Source: Parcubacteria group bacterium LiPW_15
GTDB lineage: Bacteria; Patescibacteriota; Minisyncoccia; UBA6257; 2-01-FULL-56-20
DNA: 64,000 bases
Direction: 5' to 3'
NCBI GenBank assembly: GCA_007375645.1
Contig: VMER01000003.1
Span: 10,008 to 74,007 of the forward strand
Shown here: positions 314 to 20,680 of the stretch, piece after piece
Numbering within the stretch: the first letter of the stretch is position 1
How the letters are laid out: each line of letters starts with the position of its first letter
Translations under genes and position numbers: made by a program
Notes under the pieces: model-generated
What the model saw: the letters and a program-made list of their open reading frames with translations, nothing else
Told to the model about the DNA's origin: nothing
The model's database searches: none

Positions 314-655
314 TTAGGATTTTGTCTCTGTTCTATGCAAACCTATCATAGCCGGCACGAGTAGCAGCACGAAGAAGTAGGTCCACGTTTCAGTTAGCGG
401 AGCTGGATTTGGGTCCGGATCCATGCAGTTGTCGAAACTGTCGCATCCTCCCTTGCCCGCTATGCTTGCGGCCACTAAAGCAATGAGTGCTATCGCAAGT
501 ATCCACTTGCTGATCACGAATATGTATCGTTTCCACGAGGTTATGTCTCTTTTCTTTTCTGCGAAATCGCGCGAAATCTTGTACGAGGCATATATAACCC
601 ATCCCACAAAGAGCATCCCTGCGGCTCTTTCTATGCCGGTTAGTATTTCATTCAT
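314..655 (-). CDS. small hypothetical membrane protein
   Basis: ORF of 113 aa with hydrophobic segments; 4-nt overlap with the downstream minus-strand ORF suggests an operon. Confidence 0.3.
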   Translation of the reverse strand: MNEILTGIERAAGMLFVGWVIYASYKISRDFAEKKRDITSWKRYIFVISKWILAIALIALVAASIAGKGGCDSFDNCMDPDPNPAPLTETWTYFFVLLLVPAMIGLHRTETKS

Positions 656-1149
656 GGCGTAGTTGTCGATCCATGATAGAACGGCTCCGCCTCTTTCAGG
701 GTTTTATTGATCATATCCACCTCCGCTTGTACCTGAGCGGCTTTTTTTATCCGATCCACATCCCTCTGCCATGCTGCGCGCCGTTCTGACGTATCATCGA
801 ATGGCATTGAGAGCCGACTGCACCAGATTTGCACCTGTTCGTCTTTCAGTGAAGCACAGATCAACCTGGTTATTTCATCTGGCGTTCTGGTTATTTTCTT
901 TGGCGTCTCTGGTAGTTGTGATGTTGCTGGTTCCGAAGTGGTGTCTTCAGAGTCGGTTTTTATATCGCGTTGAATCGCTGTGTCACCCAGCCGTTCTTCC
1001 GCCTGCTCAACTACCACCGATGATTGCGCCGAGCGTTCCTTGTTTTTGATTATAGAAACAGTGGCTACTGTACCTCCGGCGAGTGCCACAACTCCCATAA
1101 TGATTATCGCTATGAGCGGTATAAATCCTCCACGCTTTTTGTCATTCAT
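652..1149 (-). CDS. membrane-anchored hypothetical protein
   Basis: 165 aa with an N-terminal TM helix (FIPLIAIIIMGVVALAGG) and a charged extracytoplasmic tail. Confidence 0.35.
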   Translation of the reverse strand: MNDKKRGGFIPLIAIIIMGVVALAGGTVATVSIIKNKERSAQSSVVVEQAEERLGDTAIQRDIKTDSEDTTSEPATSQLPETPKKITRTPDEITRLICASLKDEQVQIWCSRLSMPFDDTSERRAAWQRDVDRIKKAAQVQAEVDMINKTLKEAEPFYHGSTTTP

Positions 1150-1437
1150 GTTTGTATGAATTGTTTCAGGACGACCTTTGCGTCCTGGTGCGTGGATTCT
1201 TTATGCGCAAAGACCCCAGCACCAGGCGGAACCTTGCGGCTCCCATACAGGTTTCCCTGTATGACGCAACGAGCGATCCTGATGTGGGGATCTTTATGCT
1301 CGTTGCGTTTTTGACCATGCCGCCGGAAATCCGAGGGTTTAGGTCTGGGGATTAACCCCTATTCAGTTGTTATATCAATACTACCACCAACGTAAGCAAA
1401 ATCCACATTTCTGTGGATTTTGCTCGTTACTACTTAA

Positions 1438-4400
1438 TTAGAAATCGCTTCTTTCTTCTTCTGTCTTTGCATTTTCGATGGCGCGTTTACGTTGGTTAAT
1501 GTAATCGTCCAACCACCTAATAACTCTTTGATCCGTTTCTTTTTTTCTTAGTGGCAGTATGGCTTCTAGCATTTTTTTATGGTGTTCACTGGCTTCTCCG
1601 GACCATCCTTCCGTAAAGAAATTAGCGGCGAGATTTCTTCTGACATCCTCTCTATCTCCATAGCGTATGAGGATCTCTCTAGCTAAGCACACTTGTCCCG
1701 GATCATTTGAGAATACATTTGGTACCATATTGGCGATAAACCAGGCTCTTTTCTCTACATCTTTATCTATCCATGCCCACAAGGCGTCGAGTTTTATCTT
1801 TCCTATTACCGATGGATTTGCATGATCTCGAGCATCAAAGAATTCATTCGAACTGAGCCAATGTTTGAAGATGAAATATCCTTTTTCTTCCAAGCTATCC
1901 AACGCTTTAAGCCACAACTCGTTGGGGTATGCTTCCGATATTTTCATCAGTATGCCTCTTACATACCTGTCGGCATGATCCACTATACTGCCGGAGTTGC
2001 CAAGGCTATTTAGCATCAATGTACCTATTTTCACGACAGCCTCTTTGTCTGCACCATATTTTTCCAAGAATTTATTTGCTGTTTGGGACCACGTATAGTC
2101 GTCCATGACATCCGCACGCTCATCGGATTCAGCAAAGAACATTGGGTCTGTGAGTACTGCTAACGTAAGATCTTTTGGTATTTCGTGTCCCGATTCCTTA
2201 TCAACGTAGTAACGGGAGAATACATCAAGCGCGATAGAAGATGTTATTTTCTTACTTTGCCCCATAAGAACCATGACAAATTGCTCTAGCGTTTTTTCTC
2301 CAAGTTCTCGTATTGATACCCCGTACTTGAAGTGGCTAAGCAAGACGGGATTTATTTTCCCATCTTCTACAAGAGAGAGTATATTTTCCATTATTTGGTC
2401 TGTAATACCTGCCCTCCAGGCCAACTCCGGGAGTAGTGGCACAAACAATTCTTCCTTTGAGAGATCTCCAAACAACAATTCCCACTTGCTTGGATTTTCT
2501 TCAAATATAGTTCGAAGATAGCCACCGAGAAAATACTGACTTGGCCGTTTCTCTTCGGGCGTATTCCTACGTGCTTCCAGAATTATATTGAGTAGTTTTT
2601 TTTCTTTATCTTTTTCTCCTAACGCATGACCGAAAACATATCCATTTCCAGCCTCGTCTGTCACCAGCCAAGGTATATTCTTTAGAAGTTCTGATTGGTC
2701 TTGGTATGCTTTATCAGCAAGGTCAGCTATTCTTTTTTCTTTTCCCTGCTCATCGTATTCATCTCGCTTCCGAAAGTAGTCTTCAGTGAGATTCATAGCT
2801 ACATAGCGGTTAAGTAGGGACGAAAGGTCGTCTGGAACCAACTCTTTATAGAACTCTTCCCATTTCGATTTTATTTCTTGAGGCAACTCATCGTGTCCGT
2901 AATATAGGATATGGACCACCGCTTCTATAAGATCATTTTTATTACCTCCTTGTTGGAGTATCTTCCTGGCTGAATCAAGTGCTAATTCAGAGGATCCTGG
3001 ATTTCTGCCAAAGACCTGAGTCTGATGCATAAGAGTCGTCATTATTGAGTTTTTACTATTTTCAGTGACGACATTAAGTGCTGCCATTAACATCTCCCAA
3101 ACCTTGTTTGTATATTCCCGCGTCTCTTTTGGGTGTTCGCGAGGATCCCAAAGATGGGGCTCTCGTCTAATGCCTTGGTATTCTGCTCCAACCGCTCGGG
3201 TAAAATGATTCTCCAATGCCAACGATAGCGCTTGTATAGCTATGTTTTCTTTGACTGGATCTTTAGAAAACAACAATTCCTCTAAGAGTGGCAATCTAAT
3301 AAGCGGTGATTCTTCTGTGGCAGTGAAGATAGAGAAGAAATCCTTGAACGTCCCCGTCGCATTATTCGAATAGATTCTATCGTTTTCCGCTTCTGCTAAC
3401 CTAAGCAAGACACGCATGGCTCTCACGAAGAGTCCTTCCCATACCGCGATACGTTCTATCGCCCAAATCACTTGCCTTCGTCCCGTTTTGAACTCAAGGA
3501 GCTGCTCATTGTTCCATTTTGCGACTGTTGTTTCTAACCGCTCCAGAGCTTTTTCGGGAGCGGCTTCAGCGAGTGCTAAAAAAAAATCTGATTCTCTTTC
3601 TTCTTTTAGCAGTAACCCATCCGCAAACGGTCCGCTATCGCCGAGGAGATATTCTACGGTTTTCATTGCCGCTTGAGATTCTTGAGCGAAGCGAAACATT
3701 TCGTTAAATCCTGAAATGAGCGCGGGCGGCAGCTTGGTAAAATCGTTGATATCAAATGCTGCAGCCGAATGTTGGTCCCACCACTCAATCCACAGTTTCA
3801 CCTGCAAGGGTTTTGGAGTGATGTAGTATGTTTTTTCTCCTTGAAGGATTTTTCGATCGTGAAGGTTTTTGATATGTTCATCGAATCGCGCCCTGGTGAT
3901 TGAATTATCATATTTGTTTACCAAGCCGAATATCGCAGTTGCTTCTTCCGCAACTGGTGGCTTGAATCCAAATCTCTTGAATAATGAGAGAAATCGCATT
4001 ATTAGCATGCGCTCTCGAACAGCTTGGCTTGTTGGATCATCTGTGCCAGCAATATATCGGTTAATCACAGGAACATTGTCAGGTTCCTTCAAGATATCTT
4101 TTGAGTTGCTTTGAAGGTTTTCACCAATAATTCCCGCCCAACGAGGAGAGCCTTCGCAAAATGACGCCCATCTTCTGACGTGTTCCTCTGGCACGCCATA
4201 TTGTTTTAGAATTTGTGCAACCTGATCATCTCCGAGCGGTGGAATTGGTAATAGCTTTGTGGTCCCGGCACGCTCGGATCCTTCGTTATATATCGTGATT
4301 AGGCGTATTCTTTTACCGAGTGATTGGACTCTATTCCAATATCTTACAGCTACGTCTTGCGAACATTCGTCTAGCACTAAAACAATCTCGAAAGCGTTAT

Positions 4401-5235
4401 CCGCCATTCCAATCTGCCCCAGGAAACCTTGATTCTCGAGTTGGCTCGGATTGTCGGTATAAACTACGAGGGACCTGATTTTTTCTTCATTCAGGGATTC
4501 GAGCACTAGCCGAGTTTTTCCCACGCCAGATTCTCCAACTATCCTGAGATGGATAGCATCGGTGTTAGCAAGTAGCTGTTCTCTGATCTCTTGAATAATT
4601 TCCTTTTGCGGTTCTCCCAGGGTGAGCACTTCTGGCTTCATGTCGCCGTGCATTTTCCACCCGTCCAGTGTTTCGAAGACTCCGCCACTACCTCGTCCAT
4701 TCACCATGAGGCGTATGGATGGAAAATCACCGAGAAACCCCTTTATAGTTGTTTGTCCCCATATGCGCACAATCGCATTTTGATACCCGCAAGTAGCCAA
4801 CCATTCTTTGATTTTCGTGATAGCTCTATTCGTTTCTTGTTCATTCGGATCCAAGCCAAAACACACGAAGGTTAGGTAGCCATTGGCGTCGAGACAATGA
4901 ACGACACTTTCACCGAGATTTTCCTTTTGCACTGGTTGATTCCTTCTAAATAATTCATTTTGCAGGGCTCCATCCGTAAGCACAAAGGTGGTTCCGGTTT
5001 TTATCTGGAAGCCAGAATAGTTTGCCTTGATCAATTCGCTCTCTATGCCGGTGGTATTATTTGAAGACGCATCAATACCGCCGTCCGGTGCGGTTATCCG
5101 TTCGGATATTCTTATTTCCGGCAAAATACCGAGCCTTCGTGCTTCAGCCCATAGAATATCACGGAATAATTCAACGGCTTGTTGTGACCCAAGCCTCCCG
5201 ATTTGTTCATTTTCTACATTCAGGAAACCGTTCAT
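1438..5235 (-). CDS. Mrr-like nuclease domain plus STAND-type P-loop NTPase (Avs-like antiviral ATPase candidate)
   Basis: 1265 aa; N-terminal 'APDGGIDAS...GFQIK' matches the Mrr_cat PD-(D/E/Q)xK signature (DGGID...QxK); Walker A GESGVGKT and Walker B IVLVLDE; long helical C-terminal region. Confidence 0.6.
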   Translation of the reverse strand: MNGFLNVENEQIGRLGSQQAVELFRDILWAEARRLGILPEIRISERITAPDGGIDASSNNTTGIESELIKANYSGFQIKTGTTFVLTDGALQNELFRRNQPVQKENLGESVVHCLDANGYLTFVCFGLDPNEQETNRAITKIKEWLATCGYQNAIVRIWGQTTIKGFLGDFPSIRLMVNGRGSGGVFETLDGWKMHGDMKPEVLTLGEPQKEIIQEIREQLLANTDAIHLRIVGESGVGKTRLVLESLNEEKIRSLVVYTDNPSQLENQGFLGQIGMADNAFEIVLVLDECSQDVAVRYWNRVQSLGKRIRLITIYNEGSERAGTTKLLPIPPLGDDQVAQILKQYGVPEEHVRRWASFCEGSPRWAGIIGENLQSNSKDILKEPDNVPVINRYIAGTDDPTSQAVRERMLIMRFLSLFKRFGFKPPVAEEATAIFGLVNKYDNSITRARFDEHIKNLHDRKILQGEKTYYITPKPLQVKLWIEWWDQHSAAAFDINDFTKLPPALISGFNEMFRFAQESQAAMKTVEYLLGDSGPFADGLLLKEERESDFFLALAEAAPEKALERLETTVAKWNNEQLLEFKTGRRQVIWAIERIAVWEGLFVRAMRVLLRLAEAENDRIYSNNATGTFKDFFSIFTATEESPLIRLPLLEELLFSKDPVKENIAIQALSLALENHFTRAVGAEYQGIRREPHLWDPREHPKETREYTNKVWEMLMAALNVVTENSKNSIMTTLMHQTQVFGRNPGSSELALDSARKILQQGGNKNDLIEAVVHILYYGHDELPQEIKSKWEEFYKELVPDDLSSLLNRYVAMNLTEDYFRKRDEYDEQGKEKRIADLADKAYQDQSELLKNIPWLVTDEAGNGYVFGHALGEKDKEKKLLNIILEARRNTPEEKRPSQYFLGGYLRTIFEENPSKWELLFGDLSKEELFVPLLPELAWRAGITDQIMENILSLVEDGKINPVLLSHFKYGVSIRELGEKTLEQFVMVLMGQSKKITSSIALDVFSRYYVDKESGHEIPKDLTLAVLTDPMFFAESDERADVMDDYTWSQTANKFLEKYGADKEAVVKIGTLMLNSLGNSGSIVDHADRYVRGILMKISEAYPNELWLKALDSLEEKGYFIFKHWLSSNEFFDARDHANPSVIGKIKLDALWAWIDKDVEKRAWFIANMVPNVFSNDPGQVCLAREILIRYGDREDVRRNLAANFFTEGWSGEASEHHKKMLEAILPLRKKETDQRVIRWLDDYINQRKRAIENAKTEEERSDF

Positions 5236-5275
5236 ACTTTGAATTATACCGAAAAATCCTATAATTTATAGGGAC

Positions 5276-5581
5276 ATGGATCAGTTGTTTATTCAAATTG
5301 TTGGGGGCCTTATCGTCGCGGCATTAGCTGCGTGGTTTGGTTTTGGTGGGACCAAGAGAGTGATTATTCACCGTGCTGGTCCAAGGCGCAGAACTGGAAA
5401 GTGGATCATTCTAATTTCTGTTCCTATGATTTTTGGAGGCCTTGCCTGGATGGGTAACAGCAACCCGCAAGGCTTTGATGATTGGATAAAACCACCGGCT
5501 GTATACGGATTTACGCTCGCTGGCTATGGTGTCATTTTTTTTGTGATTGGAAAAATAGTTGCTTGGTTCCAACGGCCCTAG
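5276..5581 (+). CDS. small membrane protein (2-3 TM)
   Basis: 101 aa with hydrophobic helices; TATAAT hexamer 12 nt upstream of the ATG. Confidence 0.4.
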   Translation: MDQLFIQIVGGLIVAALAAWFGFGGTKRVIIHRAGPRRRTGKWIILISVPMIFGGLAWMGNSNPQGFDDWIKPPAVYGFTLAGYGVIFFVIGKIVAWFQRP

Positions 5582-5621: not shown

Positions 5622-6426
5622 TATGCCAAGAGTCGACGATGCACTTCAATTCATAATTTCTTGTCTTCGGTCTTCCCCCATGTCTGCTCGGAATTATGGG
5701 TATGACGTATATATCCCAAATGTTTGCAGAACTTACGTTCGGGAAGTTGAACATATTACCGATCAGACTTCGGCAGAGCGACGTGCCCACGAACTTATTG
5801 GCGGTGTTTTTTATGATGCGGCTTGGGAACTTTGCCGCCGAGGCATCCTGCGCCCAAGCGTTCGGGGCAGAAATGAGCAATCGACCGATGACGGATCTGC
5901 AGGCAATGGTTACTCGATAACCACACTCGGCAGATCCTGGCTTGATGAAAATCAGGGCGTTCTTTTTATTCCAACCGAACCTTCGAGAGTAGCGGAGCTC
6001 ATCGGGCGTTTCCGGGGTGATTTCGGTGACGGTTTTTTTCAGAGAGCCCAGGAAGCAGTCAGGTGCTATTCAGCGGGAGCATATCTTGCCTGTTGCGTAA
6101 TGTGTGGAGCAGCAATGGAATCCGTACTTTTACATTTAGCGATTCAGAAAAACGGTGATGAAGTGGCGGTTATGAGAACTTACCGGACTTCAATGGGGAG
6201 GAGTAGAGTCGAGACTATTATTTTACAGGGGGTGCCCGATCACTTAGCGAGAACGTTTCGAAGTTCGACTGACTTATTGAAGTACTGGAGAGACGACGCT
6301 TCGCACGGTGCAGCTTCTGTGATCACAGAGTTCGAGGCATACGAAGCCATTTCGCGTCTCCTCCGTTTTGTTCTATTTGCAGTAGGTCACTTACCGGAGT
6401 TCACGGGTTCTCCTCGGAGAGCGTAA
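5622..6426 (+). CDS. hypothetical protein with a HEPN-like Rx4H motif (possible Abi/toxin component)
   Basis: Start chosen at MPRVDDALQF because the 5482 start overlaps the previous gene; 'YWRDDASHG' fits the HEPN Rx4-6H catalytic motif; cysteine-rich helical region. Confidence 0.35.
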
Positions 6427-8024
6427 GTTCTAACCTCGTTCAACATGTGGAGCCACATGGGATTTGCCACGTCTAAAGCGTGGCTTTTCTCTTTATTAGA
6501 GCCTTCATTGGGAGGTTCTAACCGTCCGATTTTTTGTTTTGATGAAGATGAGACGAGAATCATCGGCAGAAGCGCGGAATCCGTGTCAATGCTTATGTTT
6601 TTGTCCTTTAAGAGGAGGTTCGAACCAAGGGCGGATAAAATTACTTTTCTCGCGTGCTGGCCACGTTCCGTGAAGGCTTCTTTGGCATCGGTTGCGAATT
6701 TGAGCACGTTGTCTGCCGTCTGCAGCCAGCTGTCCACTCTGGCATCGGTGTCGTTCAAAAGCTCGTGCAGTTTTGCTTTTTCTTGATTGATCGTCGATTT
6801 CTTTCTTGCAAACTCTTCCTCGCTTATTTCCCCAGCTGCGCGCATATCTATAAGAGCGTCCAGTTTCCGCACACATGCTTCGTAATTTTTTTGCTGATTG
6901 GAGAGGATCGCATTGCGGTCAGCTGCCTCCCGACCGTTCTCGTTCTGCAACCACTTCATGGCCCAGCCGTGGAATTCTTCCGGTGGCCGGACTTTAGCGA
7001 GTGTGCCGGTGATCTGCTTTTCCATTTCTTTCACTTCTATGCATTTCTGAGTGCACGGACCTTTGCGTTTCGTGCAGTGATAGTAAGTGTAGTGATGAAC
7101 GTTGCCGTTCTTATTTTTCTTTGTCTTATTCTCGGCCGTGACCATGCATCCACACTCACCACACCGGATCATGCCGGTGTAGGCAAAGGAATGCGCTTCT
7201 GGCTTCGGTTTACTGCCACGGCCCAGGAGTACCTGAACGCGATCATATTCATCGCGCGTGATCATCGGCTCGTGCTTGCCCTTGTGCCAGTTGCCCGATC
7301 CGGCCGGCCATTCAAACCATCCGTAGTAGAATGAGTTGTAAAGCACGCGATAAAATCCGCTTCGGGCCAGTTTCTTTAAACCCCACTGATTGACGGCAAT
7401 TTCGTGGACGCGTGGCGCGGTATATGTGCCGCTCAAAATCATATTGAACATTTTTCGGATAATCGGAAACATCTTTGGGTCTTTGCGGATCGTCTTAAAG
7501 CCTTTCATCTTATCCGGCGTGTTCATATAGCCGATCGGAGCAACACCGGGATGCCAGCCCATTTCTACTTTGCGTCTTAAGCCTCGTTTTACATCCACGC
7601 CTTTGTTGTCGTTTTCAAGCTTGGCTTGGCTACACAAAAGGTTTAGTAAAAACTTATCGTTTGGAGAATTCTTAAATGCCTGTCCGGGTGTTCGGATTTC
7701 GAGAAGTTTATTCTGGTCCATAAGGTAGACCAGGTAGCCGGTGTCCACGGAATTACGTGAGAGCCGGTTCGGATGCCACGCAACAATGCCCTCCGCTTCA
7801 CCTTTCTCTATTCGTTTTATCATCGCGTTGAAGATCTCCCGGCCCGGTGCTTTGGCTGAGTAGGATTCTTCGAGACGCTCCACAATCTGAAGCTTTTCCC
7901 GTTTTGCGAGTGCTTCCAATTCGCTCTTTTGCGAGTCAATCGAAAGGACCTGTCTGTCTTCTTGTTCTGAAGATTTTCGAGCGTAGAGGAAGTACTTGAG
8001 TCTTGGTTGTACTTCCTGGTTCAT
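6387..8024 (-). CDS. large serine recombinase (integrase/resolvase family)
   Basis: 545 aa; N-terminal resolvase motif YARKSSEQEDRQVLSIDSQ with a catalytic Ser; recombinase domain followed by a Zn-ribbon (CGECGCM...YYHC) and a coiled coil. Confidence 0.8.
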   Translation of the reverse strand: MNQEVQPRLKYFLYARKSSEQEDRQVLSIDSQKSELEALAKREKLQIVERLEESYSAKAPGREIFNAMIKRIEKGEAEGIVAWHPNRLSRNSVDTGYLVYLMDQNKLLEIRTPGQAFKNSPNDKFLLNLLCSQAKLENDNKGVDVKRGLRRKVEMGWHPGVAPIGYMNTPDKMKGFKTIRKDPKMFPIIRKMFNMILSGTYTAPRVHEIAVNQWGLKKLARSGFYRVLYNSFYYGWFEWPAGSGNWHKGKHEPMITRDEYDRVQVLLGRGSKPKPEAHSFAYTGMIRCGECGCMVTAENKTKKNKNGNVHHYTYYHCTKRKGPCTQKCIEVKEMEKQITGTLAKVRPPEEFHGWAMKWLQNENGREAADRNAILSNQQKNYEACVRKLDALIDMRAAGEISEEEFARKKSTINQEKAKLHELLNDTDARVDSWLQTADNVLKFATDAKEAFTERGQHARKVILSALGSNLLLKDKNISIDTDSALLPMILVSSSSKQKIGRLEPPNEGSNKEKSHALDVANPMWLHMLNEVRTYALRGEPVNSGK

Positions 8025-9882: not shown

Positions 9883-10057
9883 GGCTTTTCACTACTTTTT
9901 CTTTGAAATCGTCTATATTCGGCTCACCCATGTAGGTGATCTTGTAGAGCTTGAAAAGATTATTCGCGCGCAAAGCAGCCTCCTCATCGGAGAGCTTCAC
10001 GCCGTAGCGTTTTTCGTAAAGCGTTTTAAATTCTTCGATTGCTTCTTGGGGCAACAT
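9857..10057 (-). CDS. small hypothetical protein
   Basis: 66 aa; overlaps the SpoVG-like gene start in an apparent operon. Confidence 0.25.
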   Translation of the reverse strand: MLPQEAIEEFKTLYEKRYGVKLSDEEAALRANNLFKLYKITYMGEPNIDDFKEKVVKSHDLSTNHN

Positions 10058-10634: not shown

Positions 10635-12203
10635 ATGCCAACACTAAACTGGATCGGAAAAGAAGCGGTAACAAACCACGACAAAGAGGTTCCTTTTAAA
10701 TTGCTTAAAAAAGTTAAGACCGCTTCGGCTGGTGACAACTCTCAAAATCTAATTATTCATGGTGATAACCTGGAGGCATTGAAAGCTTTGATGCCTTATT
10801 ATGTCGGCCAGGTTAAGTGTATTTATATCGATCCTCCTTACAACACTGGTAACGAAGGCTGGATTTACAACGACAAAGTTAATTCTCCCAAAATTAAGCA
10901 GTGGCTAGGCAAGGTGGTCGGCCGCGAATCAGAAGATCTGACGCGCCACGATAAATGGCTATGCATGATGCATCCTCGCCTAAAACTTCTACGGGACTTG
11001 CTTGCTGAAGATGGTGCAATTTTTGTATCAATCGATGACAACGAACAACACAATTTAAGATCACTGCTTAATGAAATTTTTGAGGAGAAAAACTTTGTTA
11101 CAAATATCATTTGGCAAAAGAAGTACTCACCACAAAATGACGCCAAGTATTTCTCCGACATGCACGACTTCATAGTTGTTTATGCGAAGCATAAGAATAA
11201 AGGAGCAGAAAAGCATGGATGGATAAGAAATTTAATATCCCGAACTGAGCGTCAAAATGCCAGATACAAAAATCCAGATAATGATCCTCGTGGTCCGTGG
11301 AAACCGGCCGATCTTTCAGTAAAAACTTATTCAAAGGCCTATGATTACCCAATCACTACTCCTAGTGGCAGAGTAGTTAATCCTCCCAATGGACGATCGT
11401 GGTCTACGTCGAAAGAAAATTTTGAGGCATGGAGAAATGATAATCGTGTATGGTTCGGAAAGAATGGAAAGAATGTTCCCTCTGTAAAAATATACCTTTC
11501 AGAAGTCCAAGGTGGTACAGTTCCTCTATCCATTTGGTTAAGAGATGAGGTTGGAGATAATCAAGAAGCCAAGCAAGAGATTAAAGAATTATTAGGTACT
11601 GAAAATTTTCCTTTTGATACACCTAAGCCGGTACGTTTAATAAAACGTATTTTGCAGCTTACAACTAATGAAGACTCCTTAGTCATTGATTCCTTTGCCG
11701 GTTCAGGTACTACCGGCCATGCCGTTTTAGATTTGAACAAAGAAGACGGAGGGAATCGTAAATTTATTATGGTTGAAATGGAAGATAAGGTTGCAAAAGA
11801 TATTACAGCCGAGCGAGTTAAGCGTGCAATCAAGAAATACGGTTTTAAAGAAGGTTTTGAGTACTGCGAATTAGACAAGCCCCTTTTTAACGAGCACGGC
11901 CAGATTGAAGATACTTGTGACTTTCGTCAGTTCGCCACTTATATTTACTTCACCGAAACTCAAACCAACATCGATCCGAAGAAAATTGACGAGAATTATA
12001 TCGGTGAACTTGGGACCACTGAGTATTACTTGCTTTATAAGGGCAAGAATAAAAACGATTTGAATAAATCATTTCTAAAGAAAATCAAAAAGACTGAGAA
12101 CAAAAAGGTCATCTATGCGGACCGATGCCTGATTGACGACGAGACGCTTGCCAAGCACAACGTCGCGTTCAAGCAGATCCCTTACGAAGTAAAAGTATAT
12201 TAA
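10635..12203 (+). CDS. mod: Type III restriction-modification system Mod subunit (beta-class N6-adenine DNA methyltransferase)
   Basis: 522 aa; DPPY catalytic motif (IYIDPPYNTGNEGW) lies N-terminal to the AdoMet motif FAGSGTTGHAV, the beta-class order typical of Type III Mod. Confidence 0.85.
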   Translation: MPTLNWIGKEAVTNHDKEVPFKLLKKVKTASAGDNSQNLIIHGDNLEALKALMPYYVGQVKCIYIDPPYNTGNEGWIYNDKVNSPKIKQWLGKVVGRESEDLTRHDKWLCMMHPRLKLLRDLLAEDGAIFVSIDDNEQHNLRSLLNEIFEEKNFVTNIIWQKKYSPQNDAKYFSDMHDFIVVYAKHKNKGAEKHGWIRNLISRTERQNARYKNPDNDPRGPWKPADLSVKTYSKAYDYPITTPSGRVVNPPNGRSWSTSKENFEAWRNDNRVWFGKNGKNVPSVKIYLSEVQGGTVPLSIWLRDEVGDNQEAKQEIKELLGTENFPFDTPKPVRLIKRILQLTTNEDSLVIDSFAGSGTTGHAVLDLNKEDGGNRKFIMVEMEDKVAKDITAERVKRAIKKYGFKEGFEYCELDKPLFNEHGQIEDTCDFRQFATYIYFTETQTNIDPKKIDENYIGELGTTEYYLLYKGKNKNDLNKSFLKKIKKTENKKVIYADRCLIDDETLAKHNVAFKQIPYEVKVY

Positions 12204-12207
12204 AACT

Positions 12208-14475
12208 ATGGAACTCAAACGCTATCAAAAAACTACACTGGAAACGCTCGAGCAGTTCTTGAAGGAATTGCACAAGGCCGGTCTGAAATACGCTTTCATG
12301 GGCATTACCGAGAAGCCCTATCGTGCTGAGGCATTCGGCGAAGTTCCATTTGTATGCATCAAGATACCTACCGGTGGCGGTAAGACTTTGGTTGGTTGCC
12401 ATGCGGTAGAAAAGGTTATGAGCGGAGCCTTGCAGAATAAGCTCGATCGCGGCATCGTGCTGTGGTTTACGCCGTCCGAAGCAATCAAAACTCAGACGCT
12501 AAAGAAGTTTAAAGATCGCAAAGACCCACATCGAAGAGTGCTTGATGAGGCGTTCGATAATAGCGTTAAGATTTTTTCAAACGAAGAAGCTTTATCTATC
12601 CGCAAAGCTGACGTTGCCGATAATCTTTGCATTGTTGTTGCCAGCCTTGAGGCATTCCGCAAAGAGAAGTCTTTGCAAAACAAATATAAAGTCTACCAAG
12701 AGAACGGCGCGCTTTTGGATCATTTTGAACATATTGAGGAACCGGATTTCCTTGAACGAGATAGCGAAGGCACGGTTATAAATTCACTGGCTAACGTGGT
12801 CCGGTTAAGTAATCCGCTAGTGGTAATTGACGAAGGACACAAGACAGCAACTAAGCTTTCTATCGATTTCCTCAAAGACTTAAACCCAAGTTTTATTGTT
12901 GAATACACTGCCACCCCACGAGATAACAGTAATATTCTTGTTGAAATTCATGCTTCTGAACTTAAGGACGAGCAGATGGTAAAGATTCCTATCGTTCTTG
13001 AGAGCGCAGCTCAATGGCAAAATGCTCTGACAAGAGGTATTGAAAAGCGAATAGAGTTGGAAAAGGACGCAAAGAAAATTAAGGGCGAATATATCCGGCC
13101 GATCGCACTTCTCCAAGCACAGCCCAAAAATAAGGACGGCAATACCATCACTGTTGAACACATAAAAGAGTTTTTGATTGAGCGAAAAATCCCAACCGAA
13201 CAAATCGCTATCAAAACTTCAGAAAAGAACGAGCTGGAAGGAGTTGATCTTTTTAGCAGGAGCAGTGATATCCGTTATATCATCACGGTGAATGCTCTGG
13301 CCGAAGGTTGGGATTGTTCTTTTGCTTATGTACTAGTTTCCGTTGCCAACCTTGGTTCAAAGATTGCTGTTGAGCAGATTATCGGACGCATTATCCGTCT
13401 GCCATATGCAAAGAAAAAAGCTAACGAAGACTTTAATAGAAGTTATGTTTTTGCATCAGCCAGGAATTTTAATGAGGCGGCAGAGCAGATTATTTCCGGC
13501 CTGGAAAGCAACGGTTATAGCCGATCAGACATTATCGGGGCCGATAAGAAGGATACCTCTTACGAATTAGAAGCGAAGAAGGCTATCTTAGATACGCTGA
13601 AGGTGCCGATGATGGCCTTGGACGGCGATCAATTAACTTTTGAAGATTTGGTTGGGAGCGACTTCGAGCTTTCAAAACAGGATTATAAATTTGAATTTCA
13701 AATCCATTACGATAACGACGGACGCGCCATTATTGATATCAAGAACGAAGACGAATGGATGCGTGGAAAGCAGATGTTTTTGAAACTTAATTACTCTGAC
13801 AAGAACTTTACAAAGAATGAACTGGTGCAGTGGCTGGATAAGAAGCTACGTTTTCCTCTTTTGGAAAAATCGGACAAAGTCGGTTTCCTCGATAAAGCCA
13901 TTGATTATCAGCTCAAGTCTCACACGCTTTCTGAGCTATCAGTCAATCGTTATGTCTTGGCCGACCGGCTAAGCGAAGTGATTAATGGCATTTTGGAAGA
14001 ATATGCCAAGGAACGCTTCGATTCGCTTTTGCAGAAAAAGAAAATCACTACAGAACCGTTCGACGCTTTCCCGGCCACCATTACTCTCAAACAAGCTATA
14101 CCGCAGGAGTTTAATAGGAATTACTACGAAAAGACAGATAAACTCAACCGCGAAGAGCTTGAGTTCGTCCAGCGTCTCGATCTCGACACACTTTCTAATA
14201 TTAAATATTGGGTTCGCAGCCGTGAGAAGATTGATCCGTTTTACATTCAGGGCTGGAAACGCGGAAAGTTTTATCCAGACTTTGTTGCTGTAACCAAAAA
14301 AGGAAATATTATCGCCCTCGAATGGAAAGGTGCGGATCGCGTAAGCAATGAAGATACTGCTTATAAAGTTAAGATTGGCGAGATTTGGTCGAATCTTGGA
14401 GGCAACAAACTGCACTTCTTCTTGGTGCATACCGGCAACGTAGAAGAAGTTCTAAAAGAAATAAAAGAGCTGTAA
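12208..14475 (+). CDS. res: Type III restriction enzyme Res subunit (SF2 helicase-nuclease)
   Basis: 755 aa; Walker A KIPTGGGKT; DEGH box VVIDEGHK; helicase motifs; directly follows mod after a 4-nt gap. Confidence 0.8.
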   Translation: MELKRYQKTTLETLEQFLKELHKAGLKYAFMGITEKPYRAEAFGEVPFVCIKIPTGGGKTLVGCHAVEKVMSGALQNKLDRGIVLWFTPSEAIKTQTLKKFKDRKDPHRRVLDEAFDNSVKIFSNEEALSIRKADVADNLCIVVASLEAFRKEKSLQNKYKVYQENGALLDHFEHIEEPDFLERDSEGTVINSLANVVRLSNPLVVIDEGHKTATKLSIDFLKDLNPSFIVEYTATPRDNSNILVEIHASELKDEQMVKIPIVLESAAQWQNALTRGIEKRIELEKDAKKIKGEYIRPIALLQAQPKNKDGNTITVEHIKEFLIERKIPTEQIAIKTSEKNELEGVDLFSRSSDIRYIITVNALAEGWDCSFAYVLVSVANLGSKIAVEQIIGRIIRLPYAKKKANEDFNRSYVFASARNFNEAAEQIISGLESNGYSRSDIIGADKKDTSYELEAKKAILDTLKVPMMALDGDQLTFEDLVGSDFELSKQDYKFEFQIHYDNDGRAIIDIKNEDEWMRGKQMFLKLNYSDKNFTKNELVQWLDKKLRFPLLEKSDKVGFLDKAIDYQLKSHTLSELSVNRYVLADRLSEVINGILEEYAKERFDSLLQKKKITTEPFDAFPATITLKQAIPQEFNRNYYEKTDKLNREELEFVQRLDLDTLSNIKYWVRSREKIDPFYIQGWKRGKFYPDFVAVTKKGNIIALEWKGADRVSNEDTAYKVKIGEIWSNLGGNKLHFFLVHTGNVEEVLKEIKEL

Positions 14476-14489
14476 ATTATGGAATATTT

Positions 14490-17400
14490 ATGGCAAAACG
14501 ACTTACCAGAAATGAAGATGCGCCGTTCTACTTCGAGAAATTATATGCAGGGATTTGTTTTTTAGACCTTCTCACAAGCACATCCTCTTTAGAGAAAATA
14601 GAAATTAAACCTGATAGGAAACACGGTTCCGTTAGAAGAATTGAAGATCTAACCAAATATCATACAGATGATAGTGTTGAGATTGTTCAAATTAAACACA
14701 CACTCAATCAAGGTACCAAATGGGGTTTCGCTGATCTTTGGGTAAGTAATATACGTCCAAAAACATCTTCTCGTCGCAAAGAAGGAACGAATATATTTAA
14801 GTTTTTAAAAAGTTGGCGCACCCATAAAGATAATGGGAAAAATGTTTCTTTAATTATAGCTAGCAATAAAATACCTACTAACGATCTAAATAGCCTGTTA
14901 AGAGATATCGGGAGAGTCAATAAAAGGAAGCTGTCTTGGAGAAAATTCCAAACTAAATATTCCACTGAGCTAAAAAATATTGAAGCAAATTGTAGTGAAG
15001 AACCATTTAGCAATAAAAAAGAATTAAAAGACTTCATTGGGGCGTTTCGCTTCCAAAAACTTCCCGATATAGAATCTTTAGAAAAGAGATTAGTAGTAAA
15101 ACTTAAAAAGCAAGGCGTTATCGATAATGACCGTGTAAATGCGTTCATAAATAGAGTCACAAAAACTTTTGTATCGGACCAAGTAGAAATATTCTCAACT
15201 CATGTTGCTAGTTTAATCGATCGATTAAAAACGGGTTTGATTCAGGAGATTATCGCGCCGCCAAATTACATTGAACGTCCTGAGTTAGAAAAGAAGATTA
15301 TTAAGGCAATAGAGATTAAGAAAAAGAATGGAGGGTTTGTTCTTTTATTTGCCCCTTCTGGCTCTGGGAAAACCGTATTACTTTCTAGACTAGCAGAGAA
15401 AAATCCGGATTTCTTTCCCTATTTTTGTCGCATTCGTCCTTTTGAAACTACAAAAAATCGGGCTGGCCATTCAAATACAAACAGACTAAAAAGCTCATGG
15501 TTTAAGGCAGACATCATTCAAAGATGTTTTGAATTTGGTTTATTGCCAATGTCTATAGGCGTAAACGATAATGAGGACTTTATTGATAAAACATTTGATG
15601 AGGCTTTAAAAAAATTGAGCGAAAAGGCACTTCAGAGACCAGGGAAAAAAATTGTCATCATCGTCGACGCATTAGATCAGGTGGAGACTGATAAATATAA
15701 GGAACGGTCTGTACTAGATGCAATACCATCGGTTAATTACCCCGGAGTAATTTTCTTATTAAGTACTTGGGGAGAAAAGTACTTACCTCAATCAATTAAA
15801 AATTTATCAGCGAATATAAAAAAAGAAATCAGTACTGATCTGTATTTTAGTGAAATAGAAACAAAGCAATATCTCGAGAAAGCAAATATCAGTTTGTCCC
15901 AAGACCAGGCAACAATAATTAAAAACAAAACCGGAGGATTAGCTATCTCACTATTTTACCTCAGCAAAAAGGTACAAGGTGGAGGGAGTCTCGATGAAGT
16001 AATTGGTTCGCAAGAACAATACTCTGAAGTTTTTGATTGGTATAAACCTATCTGGAATAGTTTTAATAATCGCGAGAAGGAATGTTTGGGATATTTATGT
16101 TTCCACTTTTCGCCGGTACCAAGGCAGGATTTACGCAACATAGTTTCCAAATTTAATACGGCAAGCTTCAATAATCTCATAGAAAAAATTGAACATTTTT
16201 TGGTTGCGAACAGCAACAGTCTTGAACCATATCATGATAGCTTTAGAAGATTTGTGGTGAGTAGGTTGTCGAAAGATAAGGACGCTTTTCACCAACGGAT
16301 CGCCAAATATTATTCTCAAAACACCCGGTTATTATATGGTCGCAAGTATACAATCAAACATTTAGAAGCAGTAGGCTTGTCGCAGCTGTCTGTCAGAAAC
16401 ACATATGCCGTGCTTCACAAAAATCAGTTTTTCGGAGAAATATTACGATCAAATATTGATAATCAAACCAAGGTTGAGGTTGGTAAGAGTTTTGTAAATT
16501 ATTTTTTTCAGACAAATAATATTGAACACTTGGTAAAGTATGCGGTTACTACCAGCGATATTTACCCGACAGTTCATGATGAGGATGTTTATTCAAAAGC
16601 TAAAATCGCAACCGATAAACTTCTGAAAGAAGTCGAAGAAGAATTATTACTCCCCAAAGGTGATCAGCCCTGGCTACGTCAAGAATGGGTCTTTAAGCGT
16701 CTGGCCATAGGGAATATTCTCGCCAAGAAAAAAAGCAAGAACTGTTTAACTCTAGCTCATCGTCTTATAGACGACAGCCTTTTCAGGATTTCTTTAGACA
16801 GAGAATTGCTCTGGGGAAATGATAATCGCTCTCAAGATCGTTTTTGGGATAATGCCGAGGAGCTTGCAACCGCATTGGTTAATATTGGTCGGTATAAACG
16901 AAGCTTAACTTTCCTAAAGAAAGAGATAGGTTTCAAGAAAAATAAATCCATTCTTCAAGGATTTAAGGGTAACTATATAACGAGAATTCATCTTCAGCAC
17001 CTTAAAACAAATATCGATGAAGCTTTAACAGCGATTCGTCGCGCGCCCAAAATAGAACGCCTTTTAACCTATTTGCAGATGGAAAAAGAAGGTATCAATG
17101 TGCCTAACAAGAAAGACTTTAAAACATTATTAGCAGATGAGAAGCTCGAGAAGTATTTATATAACGATAGCTATATCAACCAGTATCTGGATTTAAGTGA
17201 GGCTTTATTTGTGCATAACGTTAGGGGTCGAAAAGAAAGAATAATAAGACTATTAGACAAGGTAAAATTGGAAATCCCTTATCATGATCACGGGTACTCT
17301 TATTGGGGAACTCATGGAAACAACCGAGATACTTTCATGCGTTGGACGGCGTTACGGTCTTTGGTGGACAGAAGTTTCAAGTTGGGAGAGTTTTATTCAC

Positions 17401-19187
17401 AAGAATTAAAAAATAAATTTTCTAAATCAAATGATAATTCCGAGAGGGAGAATCCTGAATTCGTAAAGGTTTTGTCCATAGGGCAAGAATTAACGAAATC
17501 CAGATTACTTCTGAGAGCAAAAAAGATTATATGGCAATCCTTCAAAAAATTATTTGATAATAGTTTGAAATTATATAAAGAAAAAATTGATCAGATAAAC
17601 GCACAGCGTGAATCACATTATTCTGCGGACATACAAAAAAATTTATATCCCTACAGCCAAGATTTACACAACTTAATTGATGACAATATTTGGGAAATAA
17701 ACTCGCTGTTCCCAAATAAATTATTAAATTCTCTAGATAGATTGGAAAAAATATTCGGTCATGATTATGTTAGCAACAAGGCAGAACTTTTAGAAAGCCT
17801 CGTTTCTTTAACTACGCCAAAAACTTCTACATTAAAAGAAAAAATAGAAGGCTATTTGAACCGGGCTTTAGAACTGCGACAAAAAGAAGAGCTTGATAAT
17901 TTAAATAAGAGCGACAATTTAAAAAAACTGGCTGTTCTAGCTGCTCATAAAGGTTTCCCGGAAATGGCGGATGATATATTTGAGAAAAATCTTAAATATT
18001 CTCGCGGTCTCTGGAATAAAGGCGATCTAAGGATAACTAATCTTATTGATTCGGCGCGCACTCAAAAAAAAGAACATTTCGAACCAATCTTAAAATTAAT
18101 TGATCGTGTTTCTGATGTTATAGAAGGATCGTGGTATTGGAAACTTGATTTTTTGGAATCAGCCGCCTATGCCGATTATTCTCTGGCCCTGGATTATCTT
18201 TCTTCTTTTGTGATGAAAAGTGAAGTAAATCAAAATCAGGCTTTAGAGCGAATAATATCAACTTATATAAAACGTAATCCGTATAGTAAGTTCTCCGAAA
18301 TCCTCCCCCTTCTAAGATTGATGGATGTTAAAGAAGAAAACTCTTCTGATTATTTTGAATATATTACTAAAGCCTATCTTGCCTCCATAAAGTGGTCCTT
18401 ATTCAACAAAGATTACACAACAGCTAAAAGCCTGGCGCGGCAATACTATTTAATTCTTAAAACGGATGTTGAACCATCGCATAGAATGAATTTATTGAGG
18501 GACTTTTCTGCATCGTTAGCTGATCCGGAGTTAAAAACAATTCTAAGAGAGGTTGGCGTATATTTAAAAAAGTTGGAGCAAGAAGGATATCGAGCGGCTG
18601 AGAAAAGCAACTCTGAATTTAAAGTTAGTTATAAAGACTTAAATATTAAACAATTAAAAACTCTGGCCCAAAAAGGCCAGATTGAAGCCCTACAGAAAAA
18701 AATAAATGAGTACGCTAAAACGGAAGGTTATTTTACATACAGACTGATTACTGAATTAGTCCCTTCGCTTAGCGATAACGATCTTCAAAAAATTAGAAAA
18801 TGGGGATCAGAAAATAAAGTGAATGTGGACAGCCCCGAATTATTTGTGGCTATTTTGAAAAAGGCAGTCAGGATTAATAATAAGCGACTGATAAATAAAA
18901 CGCGATCAGAAATAATCCAATATTTGAAATCATCTGAACGTGATTACGGGTTAAGTGAGATTATAAGAGAGCTTGATAAAATAGACTTTCCGAAAAAGAA
19001 GGAGTTGTTAAGGAGGCTGCTATTATTGGGCATTTGCAGATTAACGGGAAGTGGTTACTACCTACCACAGTTTTTTACTTACACCTCCGAAAGCATTGAT
19101 TCATATTTTCCAGAATTAAAAGGATACGCTTTTTCAAGCTGGAAAAATATCGTAAATAAATCCATGCGCCTTTCTCTATCACAATGA
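14490..19187 (+). CDS. large STAND-like P-loop NTPase with an N-terminal nuclease-like domain and C-terminal helical repeats
   Basis: 1565 aa counted from the ATG at 14490, 15 nt after the res stop; Walker A LLFAPSGSGKTVL; Walker B KKIVIIVDALDQ; N-terminal 'TDDSVEIVQIKH' is a possible D...QxK REase-like motif; ~1000-aa alpha-helical TPR-like tail; very AT-rich. Confidence 0.6.
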   Translation: MAKRLTRNEDAPFYFEKLYAGICFLDLLTSTSSLEKIEIKPDRKHGSVRRIEDLTKYHTDDSVEIVQIKHTLNQGTKWGFADLWVSNIRPKTSSRRKEGTNIFKFLKSWRTHKDNGKNVSLIIASNKIPTNDLNSLLRDIGRVNKRKLSWRKFQTKYSTELKNIEANCSEEPFSNKKELKDFIGAFRFQKLPDIESLEKRLVVKLKKQGVIDNDRVNAFINRVTKTFVSDQVEIFSTHVASLIDRLKTGLIQEIIAPPNYIERPELEKKIIKAIEIKKKNGGFVLLFAPSGSGKTVLLSRLAEKNPDFFPYFCRIRPFETTKNRAGHSNTNRLKSSWFKADIIQRCFEFGLLPMSIGVNDNEDFIDKTFDEALKKLSEKALQRPGKKIVIIVDALDQVETDKYKERSVLDAIPSVNYPGVIFLLSTWGEKYLPQSIKNLSANIKKEISTDLYFSEIETKQYLEKANISLSQDQATIIKNKTGGLAISLFYLSKKVQGGGSLDEVIGSQEQYSEVFDWYKPIWNSFNNREKECLGYLCFHFSPVPRQDLRNIVSKFNTASFNNLIEKIEHFLVANSNSLEPYHDSFRRFVVSRLSKDKDAFHQRIAKYYSQNTRLLYGRKYTIKHLEAVGLSQLSVRNTYAVLHKNQFFGEILRSNIDNQTKVEVGKSFVNYFFQTNNIEHLVKYAVTTSDIYPTVHDEDVYSKAKIATDKLLKEVEEELLLPKGDQPWLRQEWVFKRLAIGNILAKKKSKNCLTLAHRLIDDSLFRISLDRELLWGNDNRSQDRFWDNAEELATALVNIGRYKRSLTFLKKEIGFKKNKSILQGFKGNYITRIHLQHLKTNIDEALTAIRRAPKIERLLTYLQMEKEGINVPNKKDFKTLLADEKLEKYLYNDSYINQYLDLSEALFVHNVRGRKERIIRLLDKVKLEIPYHDHGYSYWGTHGNNRDTFMRWTALRSLVDRSFKLGEFYSQELKNKFSKSNDNSERENPEFVKVLSIGQELTKSRLLLRAKKIIWQSFKKLFDNSLKLYKEKIDQINAQRESHYSADIQKNLYPYSQDLHNLIDDNIWEINSLFPNKLLNSLDRLEKIFGHDYVSNKAELLESLVSLTTPKTSTLKEKIEGYLNRALELRQKEELDNLNKSDNLKKLAVLAAHKGFPEMADDIFEKNLKYSRGLWNKGDLRITNLIDSARTQKKEHFEPILKLIDRVSDVIEGSWYWKLDFLESAAYADYSLALDYLSSFVMKSEVNQNQALERIISTYIKRNPYSKFSEILPLLRLMDVKEENSSDYFEYITKAYLASIKWSLFNKDYTTAKSLARQYYLILKTDVEPSHRMNLLRDFSASLADPELKTILREVGVYLKKLEQEGYRAAEKSNSEFKVSYKDLNIKQLKTLAQKGQIEALQKKINEYAKTEGYFTYRLITELVPSLSDNDLQKIRKWGSENKVNVDSPELFVAILKKAVRINNKRLINKTRSEIIQYLKSSERDYGLSEIIRELDKIDFPKKKELLRRLLLLGICRLTGSGYYLPQFFTYTSESIDSYFPELKGYAFSSWKNIVNKSMRLSLSQ

Positions 19188-20680
19188 ATACACTAGAATT
19201 TCTTTCAACTTATTTAAAATCACCAATCATTGCATATCGCAATAAATCTTTATTGTGCTTATTTGAAAATTCTAAACGTGATCAAAGAACAATAAACCAA
19301 TTAGGGCTAAATCTAAATTCAGATAACCTGGATATTGTTTTGAACAGTCTCCGGATCATATATTCCATTAGTCTTCTAGGAAATCCTAAGTTACAAACAA
19401 TTAATGGAAAAATCGCTAAGCTCGGATTGCAGACAAATCACTTCACCATTGCATGTCTATGCAGAGATATTTTGGATGAAATTGGTAATAAGGTAGCATC
19501 CAAAGCAAAATCTATTACTAAAATAATTACACCTGAAATAATTGAGCCAGTTGATGAAGAAATGTTCTTTGATAATTGTGATTACTCTCTTGAGTATTCC
19601 TTAGGGGCTAAAGATTATAAATATGAGCTGTCCCATATTTGCAGGACTTTTAGATATGATTGCAAGAAAGCGGCTAAGCAAGTATTCGCCAATATGAGAA
19701 TACTTGGGTATAGAAAAAAAGTTCAATATTGGAAAGAGCGGCCATCACGCTGGCAGCATGATTTCGAGGGTAATCGATATGAAACCAGGCTAAATTATTT
19801 TGCTAGACATGCAATTCAAATGTTTTTAATGTGGTGCGTCCAAAACTTATCAACTACAGAAAATGATTGGTTAGAACTTCTAACAAGCCAACGAAAATGT
19901 GATGCTTCTTTGCCAAAATTAAGCATACAAGAAAGACCGCATTTCGTACGATTTACAGATTTAGAAATAAACACGGAGAAATGGATAAAGGGCAGAATTA
20001 AAAATCGTGATGCCTATGAGCTTTTTGATCCGAAAGCAAAATGGTTTCCGCTATACGAAAGCACTGACTTCAAATATGAAGATAAAGCATTTAATAGGCA
20101 CATAACCACCTGTTTTATTAAACCTCCAACATTTAAAATTTCAAAGAAACTTGAATTTTCTACACCAAATTACAGCTGCCGAAATTCCTACATAAATGAA
20201 CTGCCTATAAAGGCAAGGCAGAATGGTAGGTTATATTTGGACGATTCTGGTAATCGACACGATGAATTAAAAGACAAGTTACTTCCTTCATACGGGATTG
20301 TTTCTGAGGACTTTGATGATTGCGTTAAACTTTTTCCCGCCCCAGAAATAATAGAGCATTTCAAGTTATCACAAAGAAAAAATACGTTAAGTTATTATAA
20401 AGGGTCAGAGCTGGTTGCTTATTGTGTTAATTGGCAGGATGGTTATTACCGTAATGTAGGACGACAAGGAGAAGATAAGTTTGAGCTTGCTAACCACGGT
20501 CATTTATTGATGGTAAAGACTAAGTATATTAAAAAGTATTTAGCCGATAAAAATTTGAGGTTGTTAGTAATGGGCAATGTTTGGAAAAGAAAAGTAGATA
20601 AATGGTCCCATGAGGGTGATTACAGTAATAAAAAAACCTCAAAACATAAGTGGTTATCTTTTGAGATAATTAAATTTTAA
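19184..20680 (+). CDS. hypothetical protein translationally coupled to the STAND NTPase
   Basis: 498 aa; its ATG overlaps the NTPase stop (ATGA); no recognisable motif. Confidence 0.5.
   Translation: MNTLEFLSTYLKSPIIAYRNKSLLCLFENSKRDQRTINQLGLNLNSDNLDIVLNSLRIIYSISLLGNPKLQTINGKIAKLGLQTNHFTIACLCRDILDEIGNKVASKAKSITKIITPEIIEPVDEEMFFDNCDYSLEYSLGAKDYKYELSHICRTFRYDCKKAAKQVFANMRILGYRKKVQYWKERPSRWQHDFEGNRYETRLNYFARHAIQMFLMWCVQNLSTTENDWLELLTSQRKCDASLPKLSIQERPHFVRFTDLEINTEKWIKGRIKNRDAYELFDPKAKWFPLYESTDFKYEDKAFNRHITTCFIKPPTFKISKKLEFSTPNYSCRNSYINELPIKARQNGRLYLDDSGNRHDELKDKLLPSYGIVSEDFDDCVKLFPAPEIIEHFKLSQRKNTLSYYKGSELVAYCVNWQDGYYRNVGRQGEDKFELANHGHLLMVKTKYIKKYLADKNLRLLVMGNVWKRKVDKWSHEGDYSNKKTSKHKWLSFEIIKF

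Follow-up and report, generated by a model that had tools for sequence, protein, structure and literature searches.

The Avs8-like gene and its sequence motifs

We analyzed a stretch of 64,000 nucleotides (nt) from contig VMER01000003.1 of Parcubacteria group bacterium LiPW_15 (positions 10,008 to 74,007 of the forward strand; hereafter, the window) and focused on a minus-strand gene encoding a protein of 1,265 amino acids (aa). This protein, referred to below as the target, is 100% identical to a deposited hypothetical protein of the same bacterium and combines a nuclease head, a STAND NTPase module, and a long C-terminal sensor region. Its parts and motifs, in window coordinates, are as follows.

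1438..5235, minus strand: Avs8-like gene, 1,265 aa (from the list of open reading frames and their translation; ATG start, stop codon at 1438-1440)
4600..5235, minus strand: nuclease head, PD-(D/E)xK (Mrr-like), aa 1-212
3766..4623, minus strand: STAND NTPase module with nucleotide-binding, helical, and winged-helix domains, aa 205-490
1441..3765, minus strand: C-terminal sensor region, aa 491-1265 (aligned by the PADLOC profile PD-Lambda-4_A as far as aa 1264)
5065-5091: APDGGIDAS motif, aa 49-57
5071-5085: DGGID, holding the candidate catalytic residues D51/D55
4999-5013: GFQIK motif, aa 75-79
4999-5007: Q77-x-K79, candidate catalytic residues alongside E31
4513-4536: Walker A motif GESGVGKT, aa 234-241
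4366-4383: Walker B motif VLVLDE, aa 285-290
4141-4152: GxP-type motif GSPR

The start codon is correctly placed, as the N terminus matches that of the relatives residue for residue in an alignment of 35 proteins, each 37 to 65% identical to the target. In the same alignment, residues D51, G52, G53, D55, Q77, and K79 of the head and G237, G239, K240, T241, D289, and E290 of the NTPase are invariant, and E31 is nearly so. The invariance of these catalytic and Walker residues indicates that the motifs are selected features rather than chance strings. Indeed, all four strings quoted in the initial annotation of this DNA (APDGGIDAS, GFQIK, GESGVGKT, and VLVLDE) are present in this open reading frame (ORF). 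Furthermore, a six-frame translation of the whole window contained the pattern DGG[IV]D-x(15-35)-QxK only once, at the target gene.

Upstream of the gene, a TATAAT-like box (GGTATAATTC) lies on the minus strand at 5245-5254, about 10 nt before the ATG at 5235, and no obvious Shine-Dalgarno sequence precedes this ATG, so that the transcript may be leaderless or have a very short leader. A scan for promoters and terminators returned matches at chance level only. On the plus strand, a divergent ORF of 101 aa (5276-5581) starts 41 nt away and, judged by its sequence, looks like a membrane protein.

The head has a predicted PD-(D/E)xK fold

The head was modeled confidently with AlphaFold2 from 29 sequences (pLDDT, 86.8; pTM, 0.80). 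The model contains, in this order, a helix at residues 17 to 35 carrying E31, a strand, a strand at residues 56 to 60 immediately after DGGID, a strand at residues 72 to 80 carrying QIK, helices, and a last strand, indicating a PD-(D/E)xK core. The superfamily is recognized by an alpha-beta-beta-beta-alpha-beta core with an acidic residue opening strand 2 and (E/Q)xK on strand 3, all of which the target head displays.

As canonical reference we used Avs8A WP_222892472.1 from the Enterobacter cancerogenus plasmid NZ_CP082282.1, a protein of 1,283 aa that scores 1,777 bits on the PADLOC profile PD-Lambda-4_A. The head profile aligned by hhalign with its first 221 residues at 98.5% probability (E = 3e-15), pairing DGGID with DGGVD and YQIK with FQAK.

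The initial annotation had likened the DGGID and QIK strings to the Pfam family Mrr_cat (PF04471). This was not borne out at the level of family membership: Pfam and NCBIfam scans of the whole target protein found neither Mrr_cat nor any other curated family, and HMMER found Mrr_cat to be absent in canonical Avs8A as well. Searches of Protein Data Bank (PDB) sequences with the target protein, the head profile, and the NTPase profile gave nothing significant. On the basis of motif and modeled fold, the term Mrr-like is justified, and it does not extend to Pfam membership.

The NTPase is probably of the STAND type and is followed by a sensor homologous to that of Avs8

For aa 205 to 520, the model (pLDDT, 89.7; pTM, 0.86) consists of a P-loop core, then a helical bundle, and then a winged helix. 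Among structural matches, NLRP2 was both the best and the longest (254 aa), with plant NLRs, CED-4, Apaf-1, and Avs5 ranking next. The GSPR motif is invariant in the 35 relatives, among which sub-threshold matches to AAA_16, AAA_22, and NB-ARC were found in 27, 20, and 10 proteins, respectively. Because of the invariant GSPR, these sub-threshold matches, and the family assignment presented below, we favor a STAND NTPase over a replication-type AAA+ protein.

The sensor region (aa 491 to 1265) has a helix-favoring composition. Where more than 800 aa of helical repeats had initially been described, the helical character is in agreement with this composition, but the region measures about 775 aa, and hhalign among its quarters detected no internal sequence repeats (probability of at most 1.8%). 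Helical repeats could thus be proposed here by homology to the Avs8 sensor. Against the sensor of canonical Avs8A, the family profile aligned at 96.1% probability (E = 3.5e-9; 392 columns, covering aa 585 to 996).

The target is a distant relative of Avs8A

PADLOC profile PDLC03991 (PD-Lambda-4_A, that is, Avs8A) matched the target with an E value of 1.9e-42, aligning aa 212 to 1264 with profile positions 221 to 1275 of 1283; for two close homologues, P0002 and P0102, the alignment to this profile begins at residue 5. By BLASTP, the target and canonical Avs8A are collinear over aa 3 to 978 (21% identity; E = 1e-23). No neighbor matching Avs8B (PD-Lambda-4_B) was found by PADLOC in the window, at the loci L001, L002, and L003, or at the canonical Enterobacter locus. 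Because Avs8B is experimentally dispensable, we do not count this against the assignment. Taken together, the sequence comparisons support a distant and divergent but full-length relative of Avs8/PD-lambda-4_A rather than a new kind of system.

PD-lambda-4 is now named Avs8, and Avs8A has been described as an Mrr nuclease joined to a P-loop/STAND NTPase that senses capsid protein. In Escherichia coli, Avs8A provides full defense on its own, without any need for Avs8B; it binds monomeric lambda gpE with a dissociation constant of 127 nM and the Bas21 capsid protein with one of 14 nM, degrades linear double-stranded DNA only when capsid protein, Mg2+, and ATP are all present, does not respond to assembled capsids, and loses defense upon mutation of the nuclease active site (bioRxiv 10.1101/2025.07.02.662641). 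Independently, the major capsid protein was found to be the Avs8 trigger, and in a model, the Avs8 sensor wraps around the face of the capsid A-domain that forms pentons and hexons (bioRxiv 10.64898/2026.01.04.697583). The text of Vassallo 2022 contains no description of PD-lambda-4.

The target has the domain folds, the conserved catalytic and nucleotide-binding residues, and the full-length homology to Avs8A, and the family occurs in mobile contexts of the defense-island type. With a probability of roughly 0.8, we consider it to be a single-polypeptide antiviral STAND (Avs) immune sensor of the Avs8/PD-lambda-4_A family, with a mechanism that would be shared by homology. The Avs-type layout recognized in the initial annotation, with an Mrr-like nuclease head, a STAND NTPase, and a large sensor in this order, is in good agreement with the PADLOC match, the hhalign result for the head, and the Avs8A literature. 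Consistently, a PD-(D/E)xK fold is predicted where that annotation had placed it (residues ~40 to 120), and the evidence favors a STAND NTPase over a housekeeping AAA+ protein.

Several observations weigh against this assignment. At the sequence level, identity to the characterized Avs8A is a mere 21%, and the activity of the target clade would follow from homology. The final ~270 aa of the sensor were aligned by the PADLOC profile alone and not by hhalign against the single canonical sequence, and the ligand could therefore differ. The head by itself (aa 1 to 212) had no Pfam match even at an E value of ≤10, Mrr_cat was absent by HMMER in all 35 relatives at an E value of ≤0.1, and a Foldseek search of the head against the PDB returned nothing significant. 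Finally, the host label Parcubacteria is that of the depositor.

The family is large and widespread

To define the extent of the family, aa 1 to 1200 of the target were used as query in an exhaustive HMMER search of 1.84 billion representatives. It matched 3,050 clusters at an E value of ≤1e-3, 2,101 at ≤1e-10, and 1,007 at ≤1e-30, and nearly all of the top 150 matches are 1,230 to 1,350 aa long and align end to end. By sequence, this is a large family with a rigid architecture, which at 50% identity comprises about 1,000 clusters or more. An additional N-terminal LexA_DNA_bind domain (PF01726) precedes the head in eight relatives of about 1,337 aa (P0023, P0024, P0035, P0037, P0038, P0042, P0047, and P0056).

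Relatives were found in genomes labeled Gammaproteobacteria, Acidobacteriota, Chloroflexia, Nitrosomonas, Variovorax, and Planctomycetaceae, as well as on plasmids of Pseudanabaena, Rhizobium, Haloarcula, Halorubrum, and Haloglomus. Their surroundings are variable and often related to defense or mobility, with DarT-Macro, AbiE, BrnT, a MutH-like gene together with a methyltransferase, plasmids, and serine recombinases. No conserved partner gene was detected: the immediate neighbors differ at every locus examined, and none matches PADLOC. On the Enterobacter plasmid NZ_CP082282.1, an Abi-family gene (L011:4815-5819; PADLOC PD-T4-5, E = 3e-23) lies directly upstream of canonical Avs8A, forming with it a small defense cluster devoid of an Avs8B-like gene.

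The Avs8 family, characterized only in E. coli and Klebsiella, thus reaches haloarchaea, cyanobacteria, Chloroflexia, Planctomycetaceae, and a Parcubacteria-labeled genome. In public records, the target and its relatives are named "hypothetical protein" or "ATP-binding protein" and have no Pfam domain assigned, and they can now be annotated. Since PADLOC already flags the target, specialists would find the assignment expected rather than surprising. The very divergent sensors provide a test set for the reach of shape-based capsid recognition.

The gene is carried by a serine recombinase element next to a tRNA gene

The right two-thirds of the window are chromosomal (lepA, leuS, serS, thrS, miaA, and tRNA genes). 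Around the target gene lie the following features, in window coordinates unless stated otherwise.

6387..8024, minus strand: large serine recombinase of 545 aa with the Pfam domains Resolvase, Recombinase, and Zn_ribbon_recom
L014:15711-17492, immediately to the left of the window: second large serine recombinase, 573 aa, whose 3' end overlaps tRNA-Asn(GTT)
1228..1345, minus strand: LOOT RNA (Rfam RF03000; cmscan 90.9 bits versus a gathering threshold of 46.4; full model, positions 1-121)
314..1149, minus strand: two small ORFs that overlap, of 165 aa and 113 aa, flanked by LOOT and by the serine recombinase on the left
10635-14475, plus strand: complete type III restriction-modification pair, Mod of 522 aa (PADLOC MTase_III, E = 1e-193) and Res of 755 aa (REase_III, E = 9e-89)
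14490-19187, plus strand: STAND-like protein of 1,565 aa (weak matches to NCBIfam Avs1b, E = 1.6e-10, and to a PADLOC CBASS endonuclease effector, E = 2e-4)
19184-20680, plus strand: ORF of 498 aa overlapping the end of the 1,565-aa gene, with no family match

Beyond the target gene, the contig continues with the LOOT RNA, the two small ORFs, the 573-aa recombinase, tRNA-Asn(GTT), and then housekeeping genes. The two recombinases flanking the target are 32 to 33% identical to each other. At two of the three loci of the closest homologues (L001 and L016; L017 is the third; 58 to 65% identity to the target), a related recombinase lies on the same strand 1.7 to 3.4 kb downstream (32 to 33% identity in the case of L001); the contig of L017 stops 2.7 kb downstream of the gene, and these 2.7 kb contain no recombinase. 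The 3' end of the recombinase overlaps a tRNA gene by about 10 to 13 nt at L014, L001 (11542-13389), and L016 (8391-10016), the tRNA being tRNA-Asn(GTT) at the first two and tRNA-Gln at L016. This overlap suggests elements that integrate at tRNA genes. In the close clade, the Avs8-like gene is the cargo of a large-serine-recombinase integrative element abutting a tRNA gene. The far boundary of the element was sought without success: no displaced tRNA-Asn fragment was found in the window with up to 3 mismatches, and direct repeats in L014 were confined to homologous parts of the two recombinase genes or to short chance matches.

The 165-aa and 113-aa ORFs gave no Pfam or PADLOC match and only weak NCBIfam matches to membrane-protein models, and they bear no similarity to the gene downstream of the 65%-identical homologue. 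They are probably genes of the element and not conserved partners of the Avs8-like gene.

The 1,565-aa protein had initially been proposed as a divergent paralogue of the target. We rejected this proposal: the best BLASTP match had an E value of 0.55, hhalign gave 0.3% for the heads, and the 3.7% obtained for the NTPases was restricted to the P-loop. The '[FV]QIK' string common to both proteins is a short coincidence with no detectable homology. In sequence terms, the 1,565-aa protein belongs to a different STAND lineage, and the island holds two unrelated STAND-type proteins, which corrects the idea of two paralogous sensors. The 1,565-aa gene, the 498-aa ORF, and the type III restriction-modification genes share a block of low GC content (0.35 to 0.40); GC is 0.38 for the block with the 1,565-aa protein, whereas the target gene has 0.435 and the backbone 0.49, both much higher. 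The contig annotation places a small HTH_17 (excisionase-like) gene ahead of the restriction-modification pair.

LOOT belongs to the recombinase elements

LOOT lies 93 nt past the stop codon of the target gene on the same strand, and it accompanies all four members of the close clade (also at L001:10873-10998, L016:6055-6180, and L017:13245-13362) and none of seven distant homologues. In the three other clade members, it is on the opposite strand. We surveyed LOOT by a pattern scan of metagenome and viral contigs and analyzed 122 loci, 120 of which have distinct core sequences; all 12 loci sampled for a check against the Rfam model were full-length LOOT. None of the 122 loci carried an Avs8-like gene. 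Homologues of the large serine recombinases that flank the target were encoded at 38 of them, with the recombinase divergent from and upstream of LOOT in 27 (in 10, with its start 130 to 210 nt away) and downstream on the same strand, as at the target locus, in 10.

LOOT as a partner of the Avs8-like gene was thus rejected on two counts, the survey and its opposite orientation in the other clade members. Since it tracks recombinases and never Avs8-like genes in the survey, LOOT is an RNA of the recombinase elements and not of the defense gene. LOOT is an orphan Rfam small RNA family: the text of Weinberg 2017 does not describe it, and no description of its function was found in the literature examined. 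Two of the LOOT/recombinase loci also contain group I introns (Rfam RF00028, 74 to 90 bits; L074:8925-9160 and L079:1784-2027), and at L079 two tRNA genes lie close to the intron.

The association of LOOT with large serine recombinases places an orphan RNA family in a genomic context that can be tested. We tentatively suggest, while judging it rather unlikely, that the Avs8-like gene is the cargo of an undescribed family of large-serine-recombinase islands abutting tRNA genes, of which LOOT would be a functional RNA. If so, LOOT might regulate the expression or the directionality of the recombinase or function at an end of the element, and the Avs8 clade would represent a route to capsid-sensing immunity for small-genome bacteria labeled as candidate phyla radiation. 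A weaker variant of this idea is that the sensor of the clade has moved to a non-capsid trigger.

Proposed mechanism and alternatives

Judged by its homologues, E. coli Avs8A and other Avs proteins, the resting target would be autoinhibited. Its ~775-aa helical sensor would bind a newly made phage structural protein, the likeliest ligand being a monomeric major capsid protein of the HK97 fold. Binding would free the STAND NTPase, whose Walker A and B motifs are intact, for ATP binding or hydrolysis and for oligomerization, probably into a tetramer. The N-terminal Mrr-like PD-(D/E)xK heads (E31, D51/D55, Q77, and K79) would thereby be gathered and would cut double-stranded DNA nonspecifically with Mg2+, aborting the infection. 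For the target, we infer the identity of the trigger, the oligomerization, the DNase activity, and the abortive outcome only from these homologues.

The trigger is the least certain part of this reading. It is possible, although we regard it as the less probable alternative, that the clade retains the Avs architecture and mechanism and that its sensor detects a non-capsid phage protein or a host-derived cue. The low identity to Avs8A (21%) and the hhalign coverage, which includes aa 585 to 996 and not the C-terminal ~270 aa, would fit such a shift, as would the observation that the sensor-defined Avs families detect 13 or more different phage proteins (bioRxiv 10.64898/2026.01.04.697583). However, the PADLOC profile is collinear with the sensor to its end, length and architecture are strictly conserved across about 1,000 clusters, and Avs8 recognizes by shape capsid proteins of very low mutual sequence identity, all of which argues for a capsid ligand.

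A function in restriction appears improbable. The target could be a modification-dependent (type IV, Mrr-like) or NTP-driven enzyme whose NTPase powers translocation or assembly on DNA and whose C-terminal region binds DNA, and indeed, the DGGID...QxK syntax is that of E. coli Mrr and a type III restriction-modification system is encoded nearby. However, similarity to Mrr beyond the motif is not significant, the NTPase has the STAND arrangement of nucleotide-binding, helical, and winged-helix domains and is neither a helicase nor a McrB-type GTPase, and the full-length homology is to Avs8A, which has a protein trigger. Even less credible is a housekeeping or element-replication AAA+ initiator (Orc/Cdc6/DnaA-like) fused to a nuclease and serving replication or transfer of a mobile element: the NLRP2-led structural matches, the invariant GSPR, and the homology of the 775-aa sensor to that of Avs8 all argue against it, and the gene also occurs outside such elements, in numerous unrelated settings and on bacterial and archaeal plasmids.

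Comparison with known systems

E. coli Mrr resembles the target in its motif syntax (a helix with a Glu, GDGGIDG, 16 residues, and VQAK), the common denominator being a Glu-bearing helix, DGGID, 16 to 22 residues, and [VF]Q[AI]K within a PD-(D/E)xK fold. Aligned with the head profile by hhalign, Mrr nevertheless matched over only 14 columns around DGGID, with a nonsignificant probability of 2.4%, and unlike the target it has an N-terminal winged-helix DNA reader and lacks both NTPase and sensor. Among the Avs proteins whose nuclease heads are of the Mrr or Cap4 type, Avs4 (PDB 8dgf) senses the portal protein; no sequence-level homology to the target was detected for it or for any other solved Avs. 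Compared to the eukaryotic STAND ATPases of the NLR/apoptosome type (NLRP2, NRC2, ZAR1, CED-4, and Apaf-1), the target differs in carrying a nuclease effector fused in cis, and its sensor is unrelated to their leucine-rich repeat or WD40 domains.

The two-gene PD-lambda-4 operon, as first defined, has an adjacent Avs8B and in this respect differs from the target locus. Avs8A of E. coli, however, works as a single gene, and the target likewise occurs without Avs8B. Avs8 (WP_000963924.1 of E. coli ECOR07 and Enterobacter WP_222892472.1) shares with the target a similar length (1,265 aa in the target versus 1,283 aa in the Enterobacter protein) and a collinear three-part architecture, with a homologous head containing DGGxD...QxK, a homologous STAND NTPase, and a homologous sensor. 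The Walker B motif reads hhhhDE in the target and hhhhDN in Enterobacter Avs8A. Unlike Avs8, the target clade lies outside the Gammaproteobacteria, its members being labeled as Parcubacteria, Actinobacteria, Nitrospirae, Chloroflexia, Planctomycetaceae, cyanobacteria, and haloarchaea.

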